Origin: Acidobacteriota bacterium
GTDB lineage: Bacteria > Acidobacteriota > UBA6911
DNA length: 64,000 nt
Direction of reading: 5' to 3'
NCBI GenBank assembly: GCA_963664705.1
Contig: OY761556.1
Location: 1,632,001 to 1,696,000, forward strand
Shown in pieces: positions 47,120 to 55,518 of this stretch. Position numbers and translations under genes: made by a program. Positions within the stretch are counted from its first letter, which is position 1. Each line of letters starts with the position of its first letter. The notes below the pieces were generated by a model that saw only the letters and a program-made list of their open reading frames with translations, was not told the origin of the DNA and ran no database searches.

Positions 47120-50100
47120 TTACCTCGACAGGGTGTTGGATCGCAGGGCCACGACGTGGCTGTTATTTTCCGGTCTTCGATCAATCATCTTGTGAAACGG
47201 ATCCAGGGCCACAATTCCCGGTTTGCTCAAGGTGCGAATGGTTAATGTCTGTTTGCCGCTGTGAAGCAGATGCTTCGAGATGGAGAGCGGCGCAACTCCC
47301 TCAAGCGGCTCATCGGTTTCTGGAAACAATGCCACATCGAACCATGTGTCGAGCGATTCCTCGGTTTCTTTGCCATGGGCATCTGCTTCGAACTGCCTGG
47401 CCGTGATCTCGATAGTGGTTTCAAATCCGTCGCTGATTTTTCGTGCTTCAGCAGCATCCGCCTGAAGATCATAAAGCACGATTCTCTCGAATAAATCCGT
47501 GATTAGCTGTTGATACTCGGGGCCAGCCTCATCGCGGAGAGCATTGACAACATCCCTTGACGTTGGGGGTGGCGATGTCCGGAAGGAGTAATCCTGCAAA
47601 AAACGACGCAGGGCATGATGGAGCTTTTCCTTGCCGAGTATATCTTGCAGCGCATACATGACCAACGGACCCTTGCCTCTGAGATAGGCATGATTTTCGG
47701 TGTACATGGCGGGTACTTCGGCTTCGTCCTCTGCTTTCCTGCCATTGAGGTAGCCATTATGTAAACCACGCGCAATCTGATTGGCATAGATCGGCGAGTA
47801 ATATTCCTTAAACAACATCAGCCTGCAATATTCTGCCATGCTTTCAGTCAGCATCCATCGGCCCTGGATTTGAGCTCCTGAGATCCGGTCAGCCCACCAC
47901 ATGTGTGCAAGTTCGTGCATGACGCCCGAATCCGCATTTTGTACGGCTCGCAGGTTGGTGACGAAACCGATGGCTTCAGAATAGGGAATAATGCCCGGCT
48001 GGAATTGCGCTGCCGTGCGATAGCGCGCATACTCCAGGATGCGCAGGTAGGAGTACTGATAGGGCGCAAATTCCCGGGAATAATACTCCAATGCGCGTTT
48101 GGCTGTCTCCATCATAGCGGGGATGTTGAATGGGTGTTTGGGGTCGTAATAGATTTCCAGTAATACGTCCTTCCATTTGTCGCGTGCAATACGGTAACGC
48201 GCCGAGCAGAACGAGAGGTTTGGAAGAATCGGCTGCTCAGCCCTGTAGTGAAAATAATGCCGCCCTCCCTGATACCATTCGCGCAGCAAGGCTCCCGGAG
48301 CCACTGCAATCTGATCGCCGCTGGTGCTGAGAACAATCTGGAATGCGCTACGGCTGTCGATTCCCATGGCCAAACTATCCGAGTGGGCCGGATCTCCCAG
48401 TCGTGGCACGCGAGGCGTCGGGGGCAAGCCGTATTTGCGACGCTGCGCATTGTCGGTCATCTTGCGAAAATTGTCATAGCCTGGGATCGGCATTGCGCGA
48501 AAGCCGCTTACGTATGTGCCATTGGCCACAATTTCATTGTCGGGATTGGCCGTAAATCCGTCGTTCCTTCGGGATACATTCCAAGTAAGCTTAATGGAGC
48601 TACCAGGTGGTAATGCAGTGTTGAGCCTGTAGAGATAGAATCCCTGGGCTTTGTCGGATCGCACCATGGATGCATCCGCTAGCTGGATCTGATTTACTCG
48701 CAGCCCCGGGTCGATAGACAAAACAAACTCATTGATGGGCGTTTTCTTGTGATTTCCCAGCATTGCACTGCCTCGCGATTCGAGCCGACGCTCTTCTGGG
48801 AAGATATCGATGGCCATATCGATGCTGTCAAAGGACGGTGCGGGTAAGTTTTCATAGCGACCGTATTCCTTTTCATAATCGGCTCGATACCGCAGTTGCT
48901 GATTAGGGGTCTTGTACTCATTGAGGATGTCGGTGTTGTAAAAGATCCAGCCACCAAGGGCAATGAAGGCGGCTGCTGCGAAACCCGCAAGGAGGCAAAC
49001 ACCGGACCGTACTCGGGATTTTGCATCATGCAGCCTTTCACGAATTGTGGAATAGCTGCTGCATGGGTAGAGCAGGTGTCCGGCAACCACGCAAAGGACA
49101 CAGAAGGCTCCCAAGTAACCGATCCGCATGAAAGCGGGCTTGGCGAAATGGCCAAAGCCATTCATATCGGAATAGATGACGGGGATGGTGAAGTTGCACA
49201 GAATGTGGTCGAAGCCGAGTGGCGCCAGGCTCAACAGCGCGATATAGGTGCACAGTGTCAGAAGCATCCCCACCCATCTGTTTGCTGAGATGGCCTGAAT
49301 AACGACAGCCAGAGTGCAGAGCATGCAGAAGTAAATGCCGCTATAAATAAATGCGGATTGAAAGTATAAACCAAGTTCAAAGTGGGTATAGCCTGCCGAG
49401 GCCTGCAGAACCACTAACGTTAGTACCGCCGTAAGCATCAGCGCATGGACAACAATACACGTAGCTCCGATTTTGGAAAGGAGCATTAGCCAATCTGGGC
49501 AAGGCGACGCGCTGACAATTTCGAAAACTCCGGAGGTACGCTCGCGATGGATCAATTCTGCGGAATACCAAAGGCCGACAAGCAGGATGAACTGAATTGA
49601 CTCACCCAGGAAGGGGAGCATAAGGCTGGTCAGCGGATACAGCGGATAGTCTATAAAAAAGTGCTGAACATTGCCTCGAAATTCACTGATCAGCATCGCG
49701 ATCTGGAGGACCAGAATGATGTAAATGAGTGGGTTCTTGAACACGCAAGATAAATCCATTTTCGTCTGTGAGATGAATTTCCGGAATGGACCTTGCGCAG
49801 AGAATCCGGATATTGGAATGATCGGTTGAATTGCAGGCACATGAACTCGATGCGGTGTGGCAGATCCATGCGTTCGTCGCTTGAAATAAAGTGGGACCCC
49901 ATCTTTCAGGGCCAGATTGAACCGCAGCGTTGTCAGCAACAGGATGAGCATTGCCGCGATCAGCCAGAGAAGGCGATTCTGGGGCAGCAGTCCAATCGGA
50001 AGACTTGCGTTGAGTTCGGTGGGTGTCCAGAATCGCGTCTCCGCTGCAACGGTAAGTCTGGCCACCGGATCAGCCAGGGAAGCCCATGTCCCGGTTTCGA

Positions 50101-50695
50101 GCCTTGCATAACCATTCAGGAAGAGATCGGCCACGAAAAAGGCCATGGCTGCGCCATAGGTTACGGCAAAAGAACGGGTCAACGCGGCAACGCTGAAAAA
50201 TATGGCGCATAAAACGGCTGTATTAGGCAGGAGGATGACAAAAAAAATGTAGGCCCAGGGAAGCGGAGAAAAGGGAATGATGCGAGCCTGATCCAGCCAG
50301 GGCATAAAGGTGCCGATCATAGTGCCCAGAAGTCCCGCGAGACTGATAAGTATCGACAAAAATAGAGCTCCGAAAAATCTTCCCAGCACAAAACTCTTGG
50401 GTGGGATCGGTGCGGCATAGACAAGTGGAGCGGTTGCATGTTCGAAATCGCGCGTGATGGCTGTGGTGACAAACGCCAGGATGGGCAGCATGCCAAATAT
50501 AAAAAGCAGCAGTTCAGTCTGCAGCAGGACATAAATGCCATTGAGAGCCAGCTGGTTGCCGAAGTCAAGGTTGATGCCCGTGCCGGTAATCGACAGAAAG
50601 TGAATGAGCGCAAATATCAGCAGTGCGCCGAGGAAGAATGGAGAGCGGAGCTGGTAACCAATCTCGAACCGCGTGATTTCCAGAATTGTGCGCAT
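47120..50695 (-). CDS. ABC-2 permease / M1 aminopeptidase fusion
   Basis: ~12 TM helices, YSDMNGFG, IPYSEAIGF, HELAHMWW-x-E (HEXXH..E), Y..G..VMYAL. Confidence 0.9.
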   Translation of the reverse strand: MRTILEITRFEIGYQLRSPFFLGALLIFALIHFLSITGTGINLDFGNQLALNGIYVLLQTELLLFIFGMLPILAFVTTAITRDFEHATAPLVYAAPIPPKSFVLGRFFGALFLSILISLAGLLGTMIGTFMPWLDQARIIPFSPLPWAYIFFVILLPNTAVLCAIFFSVAALTRSFAVTYGAAMAFFVADLFLNGYARLETGTWASLADPVARLTVAAETRFWTPTELNASLPIGLLPQNRLLWLIAAMLILLLTTLRFNLALKDGVPLYFKRRTHGSATPHRVHVPAIQPIIPISGFSAQGPFRKFISQTKMDLSCVFKNPLIYIILVLQIAMLISEFRGNVQHFFIDYPLYPLTSLMLPFLGESIQFILLVGLWYSAELIHRERTSGVFEIVSASPCPDWLMLLSKIGATCIVVHALMLTAVLTLVVLQASAGYTHFELGLYFQSAFIYSGIYFCMLCTLAVVIQAISANRWVGMLLTLCTYIALLSLAPLGFDHILCNFTIPVIYSDMNGFGHFAKPAFMRIGYLGAFCVLCVVAGHLLYPCSSYSTIRERLHDAKSRVRSGVCLLAGFAAAAFIALGGWIFYNTDILNEYKTPNQQLRYRADYEKEYGRYENLPAPSFDSIDMAIDIFPEERRLESRGSAMLGNHKKTPINEFVLSIDPGLRVNQIQLADASMVRSDKAQGFYLYRLNTALPPGSSIKLTWNVSRRNDGFTANPDNEIVANGTYVSGFRAMPIPGYDNFRKMTDNAQRRKYGLPPTPRVPRLGDPAHSDSLAMGIDSRSAFQIVLSTSGDQIAVAPGALLREWYQGGRHYFHYRAEQPILPNLSFCSARYRIARDKWKDVLLEIYYDPKHPFNIPAMMETAKRALEYYSREFAPYQYSYLRILEYARYRTAAQFQPGIIPYSEAIGFVTNLRAVQNADSGVMHELAHMWWADRISGAQIQGRWMLTESMAEYCRLMLFKEYYSPIYANQIARGLHNGYLNGRKAEDEAEVPAMYTENHAYLRGKGPLVMYALQDILGKEKLHHALRRFLQDYSFRTSPPPTSRDVVNALRDEAGPEYQQLITDLFERIVLYDLQADAAEARKISDGFETTIEITARQFEADAHGKETEESLDTWFDVALFPETDEPLEGVAPLSISKHLLHSGKQTLTIRTLSKPGIVALDPFHKMIDRRPENNSHVVALRSNTLSR

Positions 50696-50700
50696 TCGTT

Positions 50701-51582
50701 CTACTCCAGATTGTCCTTCAGATTGTGTGCAATCAAGGTGTCGAAGTAGACATCTTCCAGTTCTGGCTCGGCAGGTTGCATTCCCGCGGGATGCATGTCG
50801 GAGATTACTCGAATTTCAATGAAGCCGGCTTTGAGACGTGTGGATAGAACTGTGTGGCGGGTTCGAATCGCGGCAACTTCTTCGCGGTTGATCGTCTGCG
50901 TCCACAATCTGCCGCGCATTTCGCGAATCATTTGCACTGGCTCGCCTACTTTCAGAATACGTCCCCGTCCCATGATAGCGACAAGCGAGCAGAGTTCTTC
51001 GACGTCGTCGACAATATGAGTCGAGAGAATCACCACCCTCTCTTGGCCAACCTCTGACAGTACATTCAGGAAACGTCGCCGCTCTGCCGGATCCAGCCCT
51101 GCGGTCGGTTCATCGACAATCAGAAGCGCAGGGTTGCCCAATAAGGCCTGGGCAATTCCATAACGCTGCTTCATCCCTCCCGAAAACTTGTCAATGCTCT
51201 TGTTTCGGGCATCCCAAAGATTGGTTTTGATTAGCAGGTCTTCTACAGTTTGACGCTGCTGATCGCCATGAATGCCTTTCAAAGCCGCAAAGTGATTGAG
51301 CATTGTAAGTGCAGAAGTGCGTGGATAGGCGCCGAACTCCTGTGGCAGGTAACCAAGCTGGCGGCGCAGGGCGAGCTTGTCCTGCATAACATCGATTCCA
51401 TTGAATCGGATGGAACCGCAGTCGGGTTGCTGCAGTGTGGCGAGCGTTCGGATCAGCGTTGATTTGCCTGCGCCGTTTGGGCCAAGCAGTCCGAACATCC
51501 CTCTTGGTATATCAAGGTGAACATCCTGAAGCGCATGCACTCCGCCTGGATAGGTTTTTGATATTCCGATCAGATTCAGCAT
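50701..51582 (-). CDS. ABC transporter ATP-binding protein
   Basis: GPNGAGKST, FSGGMKQR, IVDEPTAGLD, LSTH. Confidence 0.95.
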   Translation of the reverse strand: MLNLIGISKTYPGGVHALQDVHLDIPRGMFGLLGPNGAGKSTLIRTLATLQQPDCGSIRFNGIDVMQDKLALRRQLGYLPQEFGAYPRTSALTMLNHFAALKGIHGDQQRQTVEDLLIKTNLWDARNKSIDKFSGGMKQRYGIAQALLGNPALLIVDEPTAGLDPAERRRFLNVLSEVGQERVVILSTHIVDDVEELCSLVAIMGRGRILKVGEPVQMIREMRGRLWTQTINREEVAAIRTRHTVLSTRLKAGFIEIRVISDMHPAGMQPAEPELEDVYFDTLIAHNLKDNLE

Positions 51583-51909
51583 ATTTCACCATTACGGATA
51601 ATCGGTTTCAGTGCACCATTGCCAAAAAAGGAATGCATGAGGTTGATGGCCCGAGAAGAGGATCCGAATCAACTGCAAATGATCGGAAACCACGCGCAAC
51701 ATAGGCCAAATCTATAAGACGTGGGAGGCCTCAAAATATTACAGCTTCAGGTAAGTAATATTTAAGCCATACCTGTGATATATAGAAACGCACCGGAATA
51801 TATTTTCCGAAAGACTCACACGGATATCCGATGACAGCTGGATGGCGGACTTCACCGCGCATCTTGGGCGCGTTGCCAAACCAATTATTGAGATGAAACG
51901 AGGGATGGT

Positions 51910-53613
51910 ATGCGTAAATGGACTATTGCGCTTTTCATAGGGAGCCTTATTGTCCTGGCAAGTTTCAATCCTTGCCTGGCTCAATCGGGCAGGAAGGTTG
52001 CGGAGCCTCGGTTCAGGGTGCTCAACCCATGGGCGGAGGTGGACCCGATCGCACAGCGTGGAATCTCTCCAAGGCTGGATACGCTGGCGGGTAAGAAGAT
52101 AGGGCTCTTTTCCAACTTCAAGCGGGCGGCCCGACCCATTGTCGTGGAAGTTGAAAAGAGATTGAAGGCAATGTACCCGGACAGCGAAATCAGTTTCTTT
52201 GAGTCCCGTGGCGCCAATGTTGTGGAAACCGAAACAAAGAACCGCGAGCAGTTCAGCGCATGGGCAAAGCGTGTTGATGCCGTTGTCCTGGCGGTTGGCG
52301 ATTGAGGGTCCTGCACAAAGTTCCTCGTATATAACGGAATTGCTATCGAGGACTTTGGCCGGCCGGTTGTGCTACTGGCCAACAGGGGTTTTGTTACGGA
52401 TGCTCATTCAGCGGCATCGAGCCGAGGAATGGGCGGAATCCGCGTTCTGGGTACATCCATCCCATGCGAAACAAATGTAAAATCCGAAATTGAAGCAGGT
52501 GTTGCCGCCGCCATGCCTCGCATCGTCGAAGGATTGACCAGCGCGCTGACATCCGAAGAGAAATTTCCCAAACAGCAGATTGCCGTATCCCCGCGCATTG
52601 CATTTGTCGGAAGCTACGCGGAAGTGAACCGTTTCTTCTATAAAAATGGCTGGACCGATGGCCTTGCTATTGCGCCGCCGACGGAAACGGCCGTTGCAGA
52701 GATGATGACGGGGACGGATTTGCCACCAGGCCACATCGTAGGGAAGCTGATACCAAGGTTAGGAAAGGTCACGATTGAAAAAATTGCTATCAATGCGGTA
52801 ATGGCCGGCGCGCTTCCCACGCATATGCCGGTACTGATAGCGGCGGTGCAGGCGATGATGGATCAGCGGTCAAGGTTTGATACATTCGAAGTAAGTACTG
52901 GATCCTGGGCACCGTTCTTTGTCATCAATGGACCGATTCGGAATGATATCCATGTCAACTGTAGTTCCGGTGCACTAAGCCCCGGCAACATCGCAAATGC
53001 ATCCATTGGACGCGCCTTGGGTCTGATCGCAAAGAATATCGGCGGCGCGCGAAAAGGCGTGGAAGACATGGGTGTTTTTGGAAACCCGGGAAAATACAGT
53101 CTGGTTCTTGGAGAGTACGAGGAGGAAAGTCCGTGGGATCCGCTCCATGTCGATGGTGGTTTTAAAAAGGAAGATAGCACGTTGACATTTTTCCTGCCCA
53201 ATACGTATATCCAGACCATCCCGCGCGATACCAATGCCAAGGGTTTCGTCGAGACATATGCAAGTCTGAATCCTGGCAGCATGTCCTGCCTGCTGATCGT
53301 TCCATCTCATGCCAAAGTGCTGGCAAGCGAAGGTTGGACAAAAAAGAAAATCAAAGAATATATCCTGGAAAATTCGGCGCCGCCCTTTCCGACGGTTCAG
53401 GGCGGGCAGGGAACTCCAATCCAGCCGACCAAACTCAGCGCGGATGATCTTATGATTGTGGTGGCCGGCGGACCCGGCGCCTGGATCGGATTGTTGCGTA
53501 GTGCCGGTGGCTGGGAAAATAGTTTTGTCACAAAGAAGATACAGCTTCCGCGTGACTGGGACAAATTGGTATCCAAGTACAAAAATATTGTTCCTAACTA
53601 CGTAGGTTACTGA
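51910..53613 (+). CDS. UGSC-family selenoprotein (567 aa, Sec132 at TGA 52303-52305) with signal peptide
   Basis: ORFs 51910-52305 and 52369-53613 are in one frame, joined by GTT GGC GAT TGA GGG TCC TGC (VGD-U-GSC) with no other stop. C-terminal part has GWTDGL...PPT, KIAINAVMAG, ANASIGRA, GNPGKY, EEESPW. Confidence 0.85.
52316..52357 (+). promoter_or_regulatory. Putative bacterial SECIS element
   Basis: Stem CAAAGT(T)CCTCG...CGAGGACTTTG with G-containing apical region, separated from the UGA by 10 nt. Confidence 0.6.
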
Positions 53614-53872: not shown

Positions 53873-54364
53873 ATGGCCGAAACCAAGTATGGGAAGTACA
53901 TTATCAAGGAACCTATGGAAAAGGGGCGGATGGCGCCATCGATCCATATATGTGCTGAGGATGGATGCCTTGGTGCACCTTTTTCCGGGTTTCCGGTTGA
54001 AGTTCAGTTGCTTACGATTACCGAACCGCTCTCATTTCCGCATCCCCCGCATATGCACGATGCCGATGAGCTCTTTTTCATCTTTGGGAGTAATCCCAAG
54101 AACTACTACGATTTCGATGCTGAGATCGAGATTTATTTCGGCGAGGAGAGAGAAAAGCATATCGTAAACTCCACCTCCATTGTCTACGTTCCCAAAGGCG
54201 TGTTGCACAGCCCGATTGCCATTACCAAGGTGAACAAGCCCTTCCAGTGGATGCATGTTCTCTTTACCCCCAAATATGACATGGCAAAGGGTGATGTAAC
54301 GCAGCATCCCTCTCATCCTCGTGAGAAATATACGATTGAGGAAATTAAGAATCTAAAGGGTTGA
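53873..54364 (+). CDS. Cupin-fold protein
   Basis: PH.HDADE..F.G.NP, VYVPKGVLHSP. Confidence 0.75.
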   Translation: MAETKYGKYIIKEPMEKGRMAPSIHICAEDGCLGAPFSGFPVEVQLLTITEPLSFPHPPHMHDADELFFIFGSNPKNYYDFDAEIEIYFGEEREKHIVNSTSIVYVPKGVLHSPIAITKVNKPFQWMHVLFTPKYDMAKGDVTQHPSHPREKYTIEEIKNLKG

Positions 54365-54543
54365 TGGACTTCGGAACCGGAGAAGACTGAACCCAGATCT
54401 CACGCGCGAGGGCTCAAATCCAGACTCGATTTTTGGGCCTTCGCGTTGATTTGCCCGCCCTGTTTTATCTTGACAAAGACCCGCCCGGATAGCGTTATAT
54501 CTGACGCAAGAAGCAAACAACCAATCAATTGGGAGTCATTGGA

Positions 54544-55518
54544 ATGAAAGTCAAAATTTTACTTATGCTTACTGCGGTCATCGGAATGATCGCCTTATCT
54601 GGAACGGCTGCCCCGGCCCAATGCGATCGTCAATGTTTGGAAAAGATGATGAAAGATTACGTTGCGGCCATGGTGAAGCACGATCCTTCATCGCTTCCAT
54701 TTGCAGGCAATGTAAGGTTTACCGAGAATTCAGAAAAGACCATCGACGTACTGCCTATCGGGAAAGGGCTCTGGCAAACCGCTTCGTCAGGTCCGGACAG
54801 TTTTCAGATTTATGCCGCCGATCCGGTGGAACATGCAGCCGCCTGTCTTGCCATGATGAAAGAAAACGGCAAGGATATTTATTTCGGAGCCCGGATCAAA
54901 CTGAGTGAGGACGGCAAAATCACGGAAGTGGAACACATTGTTGTCCGGAATCAGCAATCGATGCCCACGCTTGTGAAGCCGCGCCCTGGCCTTTTGGAAG
55001 ATGTCTCCCCGGCCGAGCGGATGAAGCATTGGGATCTCGTTGGGATCGGGCTTTCCTATTATGATGCGCTGACCGGGGAAGACGGCACGCTGGCTCCATT
55101 CGCAAAAGGCTGTGAACGGCATGAAAACGGAATGATCACCGCTGGTGGCGCACCCGCTCCGAAAGATCAGACAATCCCTGGAGTCAAGCTCGATCCCGCA
55201 ATGGCGAAGATGCCGAGAGACTGCACGGGACAACTCAGCACCGGAACGTTCGCGTACATTACGGAAGTCAAGCCTCGACGCCTTGTCCTGGCCGATGTAC
55301 AGAAGGGAATCGCGGTCGGCTTTTCAATGTTCTATCACACCGGGGAATTGAAAACGATGAAGATCAAGGGAGTCCCCGGAGTTACCGAAATTCCGTCTTT
55401 TGATCAGCGATTTAATCTGCCCGCCATCCATTTCTTTAAGATCAGAAAGGGTCAGATTTATGAGATCGAGGCAGTTGGAACCATGATGCCTTATGGTATT
55501 TCGTCCAATTGGGAATAG
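54544..55518 (+). CDS. Secreted hypothetical protein, paralog of 13665-14546
   Basis: Signal peptide; CDRQCL, HDP, FTEN, GKGLWQTA, CERHENG, FKIRKGQIYEIEA. Confidence 0.75.
   Translation: MKVKILLMLTAVIGMIALSGTAAPAQCDRQCLEKMMKDYVAAMVKHDPSSLPFAGNVRFTENSEKTIDVLPIGKGLWQTASSGPDSFQIYAADPVEHAAACLAMMKENGKDIYFGARIKLSEDGKITEVEHIVVRNQQSMPTLVKPRPGLLEDVSPAERMKHWDLVGIGLSYYDALTGEDGTLAPFAKGCERHENGMITAGGAPAPKDQTIPGVKLDPAMAKMPRDCTGQLSTGTFAYITEVKPRRLVLADVQKGIAVGFSMFYHTGELKTMKIKGVPGVTEIPSFDQRFNLPAIHFFKIRKGQIYEIEAVGTMMPYGISSNWE

Follow-up and report, generated by a model that had tools for sequence, protein, structure and literature searches.

A probable two-part recoding signal in the gene of a likely exported UGSC-family selenoprotein from an Acidobacteriota bacterium

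The gene at positions 51910-53613 of a 64,000-nucleotide (nt) stretch of Acidobacteriota DNA (assembly GCA_963664705.1, contig OY761556.1, positions 1,632,001 to 1,696,000 of the forward strand; hereafter the window) encodes a UGSC-family protein in a frame interrupted by a single in-frame TGA. We propose that this UGA is read as selenocysteine (Sec), that the product is exported, and that recoding depends on a two-part selenocysteine insertion sequence (SECIS) composed of two hairpins, HP1 and HP2, the first acting as a spacer that would bring the second to the position where SelB normally binds. We put the probability that all three parts hold together at about 0.55. HP2, the hairpin that likely recodes, lies about three times farther from the UGA than the usual recoding hairpin. 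On present comparisons the selenoprotein gene is genuine, its family and its domain fusion are both known, and its SECIS is non-canonical and probably two-part.

The frame comprises 567 codons with one internal stop, the TGA at 52303-52305, which is codon 132 and stands in the context AVGD-U-GSCTK. Sec read-through yields a protein of 567 amino acids (aa). The initial annotation had proposed that this TGA joins two open reading frames (ORFs), that the second ORF has no convincing ribosome-binding site or ATG and that ORF callers split the gene, all of which was borne out. The only in-frame starts between the TGA and position 52440 are a GTG at 52369, located in the HP2 loop with no Shine-Dalgarno-like motif in the preceding 16 nt, and an ATG at 52429, which a GAGGA abuts directly with zero spacer. 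The best 120 of 4,845 database protein matches were all C-terminal pieces of 384-429 aa. The signal-peptide-like N-terminus also found support in a pattern of basic residues, a hydrophobic stretch and then C-L-A, export being scored by a hydropathy rule. Promoter and terminator scans returned signals at chance level, and an Rfam search of the gene gave zero matches.

The genome (6.89 Mb in one contig, 98% complete, contamination estimate 6.2%) contains selA, selB, selC and selD, with two copies each of selA, selB and selD above cut-off and two tRNA-Sec genes. All 80 metagenome loci keep the TGA, as do 107 of the 111 sites aligned from 79 loci of named genomes; the remaining four are distant paralogs. 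The same TGA and motif occur in hundreds of loci from several phyla. N-termini shared unchanged between genus relatives and named records (L057 and L191, for example) point to Acidobacteriota as the host. A tblastn search identified 35 paralogs of the fused gene in the genome; 31 have UGA at the same U-x-x-C motif (the 31st was seen after frame extension) and four have no stop at the motif site. As a protein the UGSC gene is thus not exceptional. Homologs with Cys at this site were also found: of the 60 proteins that cover the site in a listing of 150 representatives, 26 read Cys-x-x-Cys, and the Cys homologs include close forms reading D-C-G-S-C-T-K-F. Neither of the two grounds for doubt named in the initial annotation, a genome without Sec machinery and homologs that fail to align through the UGA with Cys or Sec, was encountered. 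Conservation of the codon and its Cys counterparts indicate that UGA codon 132 almost certainly encodes Sec.

Downstream of the UGA, a stem-loop had been noted at 52316-52357 (HP1). It folds at -11.9 kcal/mol (z -3.5) and was matched in stability by 0 of 200 shuffled sequences, confirming that the structure is real; all 11 of its pairs survived in 3.1% of 100,000 codon resamplings in which the protein was held fixed. In a set of 28 close orthologs and paralogs, codons 133-139 and most of codons 146-156 show almost no synonymous change, unlike codons 140 and 143-145. Over codons 133-150 the proportion of identical synonymous codons reached 0.76, against 0.45 +/- 0.04 (maximum 0.55) in 466 background windows of 28 genes. 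Because the frozen codons extend beyond HP1, they led us to a second and better conserved hairpin, HP2, at 52361-52380, which the initial annotation had missed; HP1 itself is probably not the part that binds SelB. Synonymous constraint is high in both stems; of the six codons that make up the HP1 top, four show little of it. Counting from the U of the UGA, HP1 consists of nt 14-25 paired to 45-55. HP2 consists of nt 59-65 paired to 72-78 and encloses a loop at 66-71 whose start is 62 nt past the UGA. HP2 folds at -11.2 kcal/mol in the window, and both stems survived in 0.04% of 100,000 random recodings of the same peptide.

Comparative analysis supported both stems. HP2 positions were paired in 96.6% of alignment cells across 29 genome sequences, with 10 double changes against 3.7 in shuffles. 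Across 66 distinct sequences (65 from metagenomes plus the window), HP1 and HP2 together were paired in 98.4% of cells, and four pairs, in 32 cells, had changed on both sides, compared with 8.5 after shuffling; 0 of 500 shuffles gave as many, a count that does not read as a probability since the 66 sequences are related. When the partners were slid, pairing in the same sequences dropped to 25-48%. The HP2 loop reads YGUGNU in 122 of 126 distinct sequences of HP2 type. The apical loop of HP1 occurs in 25 different combinations of position and length, and only 42 of the 126 have a small one containing a G. HP2 is the sole G-U-loop hairpin of at least 5 bp and -6 kcal/mol or better across the window gene, and it recurs in 26 of 28 orthologs, the next-best site recurring in three. 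An earlier fold, in which nt 5-12 pair with 56-62 as a lower stem, was set aside: it is in competition with the better covarying HP2, and of its six pairs four were each broken in 2-4 of 28 sequences. A degenerate pattern of the whole element matched three genomes out of 401 in the phylum, and these three belong to the same genus.

The distance between the UGA and HP2 is unusual. In the bacterial consensus the SECIS loop lies 16-37 nt from the UGA (PMC13188914, Fig. 2A legend), although the same source mentions putative bacterial elements that misfit the consensus model, and a SECIS server reportedly failed for several selenoproteins (bioRxiv preprint 10.1101/2022.07.06.499078). Structural work placed the conserved SECIS G about 20 nt from the UGA, with the hairpin near the mRNA entrance and an estimated linker of about 13 nt, and described a hinge that tolerates differences in spacing (PMC4605307). 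The lower SECIS portion has to unwind within the tunnel (PMC4513850). The other UGA paralogs in the genome follow the near arrangement. Most have a near hairpin with G-U at nt 20-26 and pairable bases on its flanks, and a G-U-loop hairpin with its G at nt 20-25 was called in 22 of these 26. Folding of nt 12-36 gave -4.5 to -12.4 kcal/mol for the 26, versus 0 to -1.4 kcal/mol for the five paralogs of the HP2 clade. A further gene, which we take from its motif to be formate-dehydrogenase-like, has its G-U at nt 23-24.

Folding of HP1 takes out 42 nt, so that the HP2 loop moves from 62 to about 20 nt. Counted on the G-U itself, which occupies nt 67-68, subtracting HP1 (42 nt, or 45 with the flanking pair) leaves 22-25. 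When nt 1-13 were forced to be unpaired, HP1 and HP2 both folded, leaving 10 plus 3 unpaired nt, and pair probabilities were at least 0.96 in both stems except for one pair at 0.5. The proposed course is as follows. UGA codon 132 is, with near certainty, read as Sec, joining the two called ORFs, and the N-terminal signal peptide very probably exports the protein. While the UGA occupies the A site and the mRNA channel holds about 10 nt, both hairpins would be folded; 13 unpaired nt would remain between the UGA and the HP2 stem, and SelB would bind the G-U of HP2. HP1 would thus serve as a spacer that folds out 42 nt and places the distant HP2 where SelB normally binds. We consider this last step as a whole, folding of both hairpins and SelB on HP2, somewhat better than an even bet.

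Among 90 close homologs, HP2 with its G-U loop was present in 35, a near hairpin in 44, both in none and neither in 11. HP1 formed in all 36 HP2-type rows that were folded, although its register was shifted in some. A near G-U hairpin was seen in one of the 126 HP2-type sequences. In a tree of 99 rows, built from the protein downstream of the RNA element only and leaving out rows shorter than 250 aa, 41 HP2-type genes and one degenerate gene fell on one side of a single branch (Shimodaira-Hasegawa-like approximate likelihood-ratio test 97, by a quick method); this grouping is a branch split, in a tree whose base did not resolve. HP2-type rows come from Acidobacteriota, Thermodesulfobacteriota and records labelled Myxococcota; the near-hairpin type is mostly from Chloroflexota. 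From the outgroup paralogs we infer that the near type is ancestral. A hydrophobic N-terminus by the hydropathy rule was present in 34 of 34 HP2-type proteins, versus 0 of 37 near-type and one of nine others. HP1 and HP2 probably form a two-part SECIS, apparently of single origin.

Several observations weigh against this interpretation. Covariation in HP1 is thin, with one pair in each of two alignments (one being that of the 66 sequences), and the double changes stem mostly from HP2's outer pair, itself unpaired in 11 of the 66. The window's own HP1 can also fold with a small inner loop whose G lies 30 nt from the UGA, formally within the loose consensus. The thresholds for calling HP2 and near hairpins in the 90 homologs were chosen after the sequences had been viewed and, since the HP2 type is one branch, its mutual exclusion with the near hairpin counts as one event. 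The signal peptide arose on that same branch, so the hairpins could serve something linked to export. Finally, a genome scan seeded with Cys homologs recovered no TGC or TGT site, and so provided no Cys-coding DNA control for decay of the hairpins.

An ordinary one-hairpin SECIS would have its SelB site in HP1, at the top G or at a G-U near the bulge, and HP2 would play a secondary part, for example slowing the ribosome or stabilising the mRNA. HP1 does begin at the usual place, 10 nt past the UGA, with frozen stem codons; its 5-nt inner loop with a G in the window falls within the 16-37 nt rule (PMC13188914); nucleotide 34 is G in 120 of 126 sequences; and G18-U19 is common to near-type and HP2-type genes. 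However, the HP1 top has no conserved pairing or loop (a small G-bearing loop in 42 of 126), G34 is missing in 6 of 126 and is a first codon position, and G18 and U19 are both paired within HP1. Nor does a single hairpin explain the conservation of the HP2 loop nucleotides, which match the loops of ordinary SECIS elements in the genome, and we hold it to be unlikely. A role of the hairpins mainly in export-tied regulation or quality control, through pausing or through protection of the mRNA after termination at the UGA, with Sec still inserted and SelB recruited loosely by either hairpin, would agree with the joint occurrence of the two-hairpin form and the signal peptide on the same branch, and stalling and quality control at UGA-SECIS sites have been discussed (PMC4513850). 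Many other paralogs with signal-peptide-like N-termini nevertheless carry ordinary near hairpins, so export does not need the two-hairpin form, and this explanation appears improbable.

Two further explanations were considered. The G-U-G of its loop is an in-frame GTG (52369) and the start picked for the 414-aa ORF, one ortholog (L045) has TTG there, and stand-alone C-domain proteins exist among the representatives; the loop could accordingly be a regulated internal start for a C-terminal protein, with HP1 hiding a Shine-Dalgarno-like GAGGA. But this GAGGA ends 16 nt ahead of the GTG, a gap that exceeds usual Shine-Dalgarno spacing, the product would begin midway through the predicted UGSC fold, at residue 154, and with no signal peptide, and the stand-alone C-domains align from about residue 225, making such a start very unlikely. 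If the TGA were a true stop, separating two proteins or marking a broken gene or an assembly error, the storage of the gene as split pieces in databases would be expected; recurrence of the TGA and motif in hundreds of loci of several phyla, the Cys homologs, the Sec machinery of the genome and a continuous structural model across the site (below) all contradict this, and we give it practically no credence.

Having weighed these alternatives, we retain the two-part SECIS as the favoured reading and turn to the protein that it would serve. UGSC family membership was supported by the U-G-S-C motif and by PF24696, which scored 104.7 bits against a cut-off of 25 on residues 37-210; the NCBIfam equivalog model NF041046 (UGSC_fam) gave 82.2 bits, under its curated cut-off of 125. 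The function of the family is undefined according to PMC13188914. A C-terminal block A-x-N-x-V-M-A-G ... N-G-P, with columns at least 90% conserved (alignment A3), matches by eye the Unknown_1 domain, whose fusion to UGSC was published in 2008 (PMC2398784 Fig. S1A, supplement 1). Since that fusion was already shown, the protein architecture is known. AlphaFold2 with 148 sequences produced one continuous high-confidence model across the Sec site (predicted local distance difference test, pLDDT, 94.9; predicted template modelling score 0.94), in which Sec lies at the end of the third core strand, just ahead of a helix. The structure matches listed for the N-terminal domain were flavodoxin- or Rossmann-like (Z 8.6-11, none standing out), with no thioredoxin-like fold among them; the comparison with 8s7v_H (Z 10.1, root-mean-square deviation 4.6, 139 residues aligned) was no better than unrelated rows.

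For the UGSC domain the prediction is a flavodoxin-like fold and a distant relationship to GrdB/PrdB. This relationship was tested by profile comparison with a set made of 30 of the listed matches, the family having been found in 49 of 201 genomes. Alignment by hhalign placed U-x-x-C in register both with the PrdB-like set (P 83.8%, E 7.9e-6) and with one GrdB (P 89.2%, E 2.2e-6). Conversely, the GrdB/PrdB profile ranked UGSC paralogs 1-8, and as 18 of the top 22, among 21,719 six-frame genome segments. On the other side, the GrdB match spans 62-71 columns, and its hidden Markov model score of 18-20 bits equals that of the best unrelated PDB match with the whole-protein profile (19 bits). PF07355 gave no match on the protein at E 0.01, and was not found in the genome in a scan in which control genomes were also silent. 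A scan for GrdE/PrdA (PF09338), the pyruvoyl partner subunit, found it in a positive control genome but not in the source genome, the C-terminal domain compared with one GrdE sequence gave P 0.2%, and the Cys that follows V-M-A-G in Unknown_1 (Cys in 108 of 147 relatives) is Ala301 here. Small PrdB-like U-x-x-C proteins occur in many genomes of the phylum, and three such genomes tested had no GrdE/PrdA match.

The C-terminal domain was modelled with similar confidence (pLDDT 93.8), and has no Pfam or NCBIfam family match. We made no fold assignment for it, as the best structure match had Z 5.5 over 84 residues, which is not proof of a new fold; class I fumarase was rejected after weak matches (template modelling score about 0.25, root-mean-square deviation above 14). 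Its conserved polar residues include D250, T258, T288, N295, N363, R368, N376, E402, E404 and W409. A PDB sequence search with the protein gave 0 matches and a profile search weak ones only, the best being a designed protein, and the ESM Atlas returned only unnamed or automatically named clusters. Other architectures also occur (P0151, P0158, P0189, P0230), namely tandem C-domains with no UGSC match and C-UGSC-C forms that carry a further domain at the C-terminus together with a C-G-C-G-L-C motif.

By analogy with GrdB/PrdB, the mature protein has an even chance of being a selenolate-based reductase that acts on a small molecule bound by its C-terminal domain. Sec132 would attack the substrate held there, Cys135 would resolve the adduct by forming a Se-S bond, and the enzyme would be restored by a disulfide-reducing system, thioredoxin-reductase-like for cytoplasmic relatives and perhaps DsbD for the exported form. 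The initial annotation had described a periplasmic Sec redox enzyme; Sec and export are supported, while the redox role is still presumed, in a fold that looks flavodoxin-like and GrdB/PrdB-related. A thioredoxin-reductase-like gene was found in 14 of 139 UGSC loci, in 12 of them within about 210 nt of the UGSC gene end, and never beside an HP2-type gene. These neighbours suggest that U-x-x-C cycles between reduced and Se-S states. A DsbD-family gene lies elsewhere in the genome.

Neighbours of the exported clade include esterases, cupin-like proteins, glycyl-radical enzymes and arylsulfotransferases, with no fixed operon. In the window, the gene (Table 1) is followed by a 163-aa protein at 53873-54364 (+) with no Pfam or NCBIfam match and a His-rich motif, by which we assume it to be cupin-like (relatives in 26 of 139 UGSC loci), and by a 329-aa protein with a signal peptide and no family match at 54529-55518 (+) (relatives in 10 of 139). 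Divergently upstream, 47120-51582 (-) holds a pair of genes, one for an ABC ATPase and one for an ABC-2 permease with a fused M1 peptidase domain, with no link to UGSC seen. A protein of about 190 aa with a signal peptide and no Pfam match stands directly beside UGSC genes in 14 loci, mostly just after copies of the H-U-S-S-C type (L013, L015, L021, L022, L028, L030, L033, L184, L188, L191, L194, L198, L201, L209), and is a candidate partner. In Desulfatiglans-related genomes, a glycyl-radical enzyme gene lies about 1 kb or less downstream of the two-hairpin UGSC gene, often after a cupin-like gene (L187, L188, L198, L209, L217, L218, L219).

Table 1. Positions of the gene and its features in the window
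Feature	Position	Strand	Basis
GAGGG, Shine-Dalgarno-like	51900..51904	+	5 nt ahead of ATG; sequence
Full coding sequence, 567 aa if TGA is Sec	51910..53613	+	one-TGA frame recurs in relatives
Predicted signal peptide, residues 1-24, putative cleavage site	51910..51981	+	N-terminal pattern and hydropathy
UGSC domain, residues 37-210	52018..52539	+	PF24696 E 7.6e-30; predicted flavodoxin-like alpha/beta fold, predicted distant GrdB/PrdB relative
In-frame TGA, Sec132 of U-G-S-C (almost certain); Cys135 at 52312-52314	52303..52305	+	conservation, Cys homologs
HP1, 11-bp stem, one bulge, variable 19-nt top; proposed spacer hairpin	52316..52357	+	folding, comparison
HP2, 7-bp stem, 6-nt loop YGUGNU, G-U at 52369-52370; proposed SelB-binding hairpin	52361..52380	+	conservation, covariation
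C-terminal domain, Unknown_1 of PMC2398784 Fig. S1A; putative substrate-binding part	52570..53610	+	no family match, no clear solved-structure match

The fused UGSC family is expanded in the source genus, with 9-34 matches in each of 24 genomes, and any match in 2 of 16 other genomes of the class. Expanded copies show varied motifs (U-S-S-C, U-D-G-C, U-S-V-C, U-P-G-C, U-W-G-C), suggesting different substrates.

Two ideas about the Sec machinery were rejected. That two types of SelB might serve two types of SECIS did not agree with the 24 genus relatives, of which 21 show one selB match, two show two and one (71% complete) shows none. A third tRNA with a UCA anticodon, reading UGA as another residue, was dismissed on account of the broken acceptor stem of the 72-nt call (contig 1,625,651-1,625,722, -), which has TCA at the anticodon position and an atypical loop, scores in Rfam as a partial generic tRNA and is probably a tRNA remnant. 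A second complete Sec cluster lies at contig ~3,072,600-3,078,300 and contains selB, selA, selD with a C-terminal extension and tRNA-Sec; unlike it, the other Sec gene set of the genome is scattered, and the clustered set is possibly a transferred island. The genes beside it are presumably corrinoid protein-like and uroporphyrinogen-decarboxylase-like methyltransferases. A methyltransferase-like ORF adjoining the second tRNA-Sec (L039:10481-11092, -) ends A-W-S-T at its stop, and may be a read-through selenoprotein. Spot examples from a noisy genome-wide scan, from which no total is claimed, gave further likely Sec codons with near G-U hairpins at contig 4,401,710, 4,399,622, 4,261,972 and 4,604,377 (all -); by their motifs we take these to be formate-dehydrogenase-like, hydrogenase-delta-like and thioredoxin-like, with one left unlabelled.

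Taken together, the results are evenly balanced on the view that one clade swapped a near SECIS for a two-part element in which 42-45 nt are looped out and a canonical SelB hairpin acts from more than 60 nt, in the gene of a reductase that would be exported, distantly of GrdB/PrdB type, present in about 30 copies per genome and equipped with a substrate-binding domain for which no solved structure clearly matches. If this is true, the distance rule for bacterial Sec insertion is spatial rather than linear, and SECIS searches miss a class of elements. The 16-37 nt loop rule underlies selenoprotein prediction, and bridging of 62 nt by folding would alter its reading. The rule also restricts the protein sequence able to follow an engineered Sec; a two-part element could let engineers free the codons right after it. 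Such an element could also explain some of the putative SECIS that misfit the model (PMC13188914). The accessible sections of that paper do not describe a two-part form, and in the literature searched, judged from titles and the starts of abstracts, we found no description of a spacer-plus-distal bacterial SECIS; subscription journals were mostly uncovered, and a prior description is possible. The protein side is less new, family and fusion having been published, whereas for the RNA element no earlier report was found in that literature.

Comparison with known systems places the protein and its RNA element differently. Like the published UGSC/Unknown_1 proteins, the protein has the U-G-S-C motif, PF24696 and the same fused C-terminal domain; unlike them it has a signal peptide, has lost the highlighted Cys and falls below the NF041046 equivalog cut-off. 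Its UGSC domain is predicted to be flavodoxin-like, whereas a thioredoxin-like fold was suggested in 2008 (PMC2398784). With GrdB/PrdB (PF07355) it shares the strand-U-x-x-C-helix-'E..G.P.V' region, with U and C in register, and the reciprocal profile ranking. It differs in the absent PF07355 match, in a likeness limited to 60-70 residues, in its partner domain and in predicted export, and the source genome differs from GrdB/PrdB systems in having no detected GrdE/PrdA; no link between UGSC and GrdB was found in the accessible literature naming both. HP1 fits the SECIS model in the fold of the window itself, but in just 42 of 126 relatives. HP2 departs from the consensus bacterial SECIS in its 62-nt distance, outside 16-37 nt, and in the second conserved hairpin that lies between. 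In its own structure HP2 resembles the consensus, with a stem of 6-7 bp, a 6-nt loop and G then U in the first positions; 122 of 126 sequences fit the consensus loop and stem (loop of 3-9 nt that opens with G followed by G or U, stem of 4-16 bp), and the G-U is flanked on both sides by a pairable base, a feature of the consensus and of the other SECIS elements of the genome.

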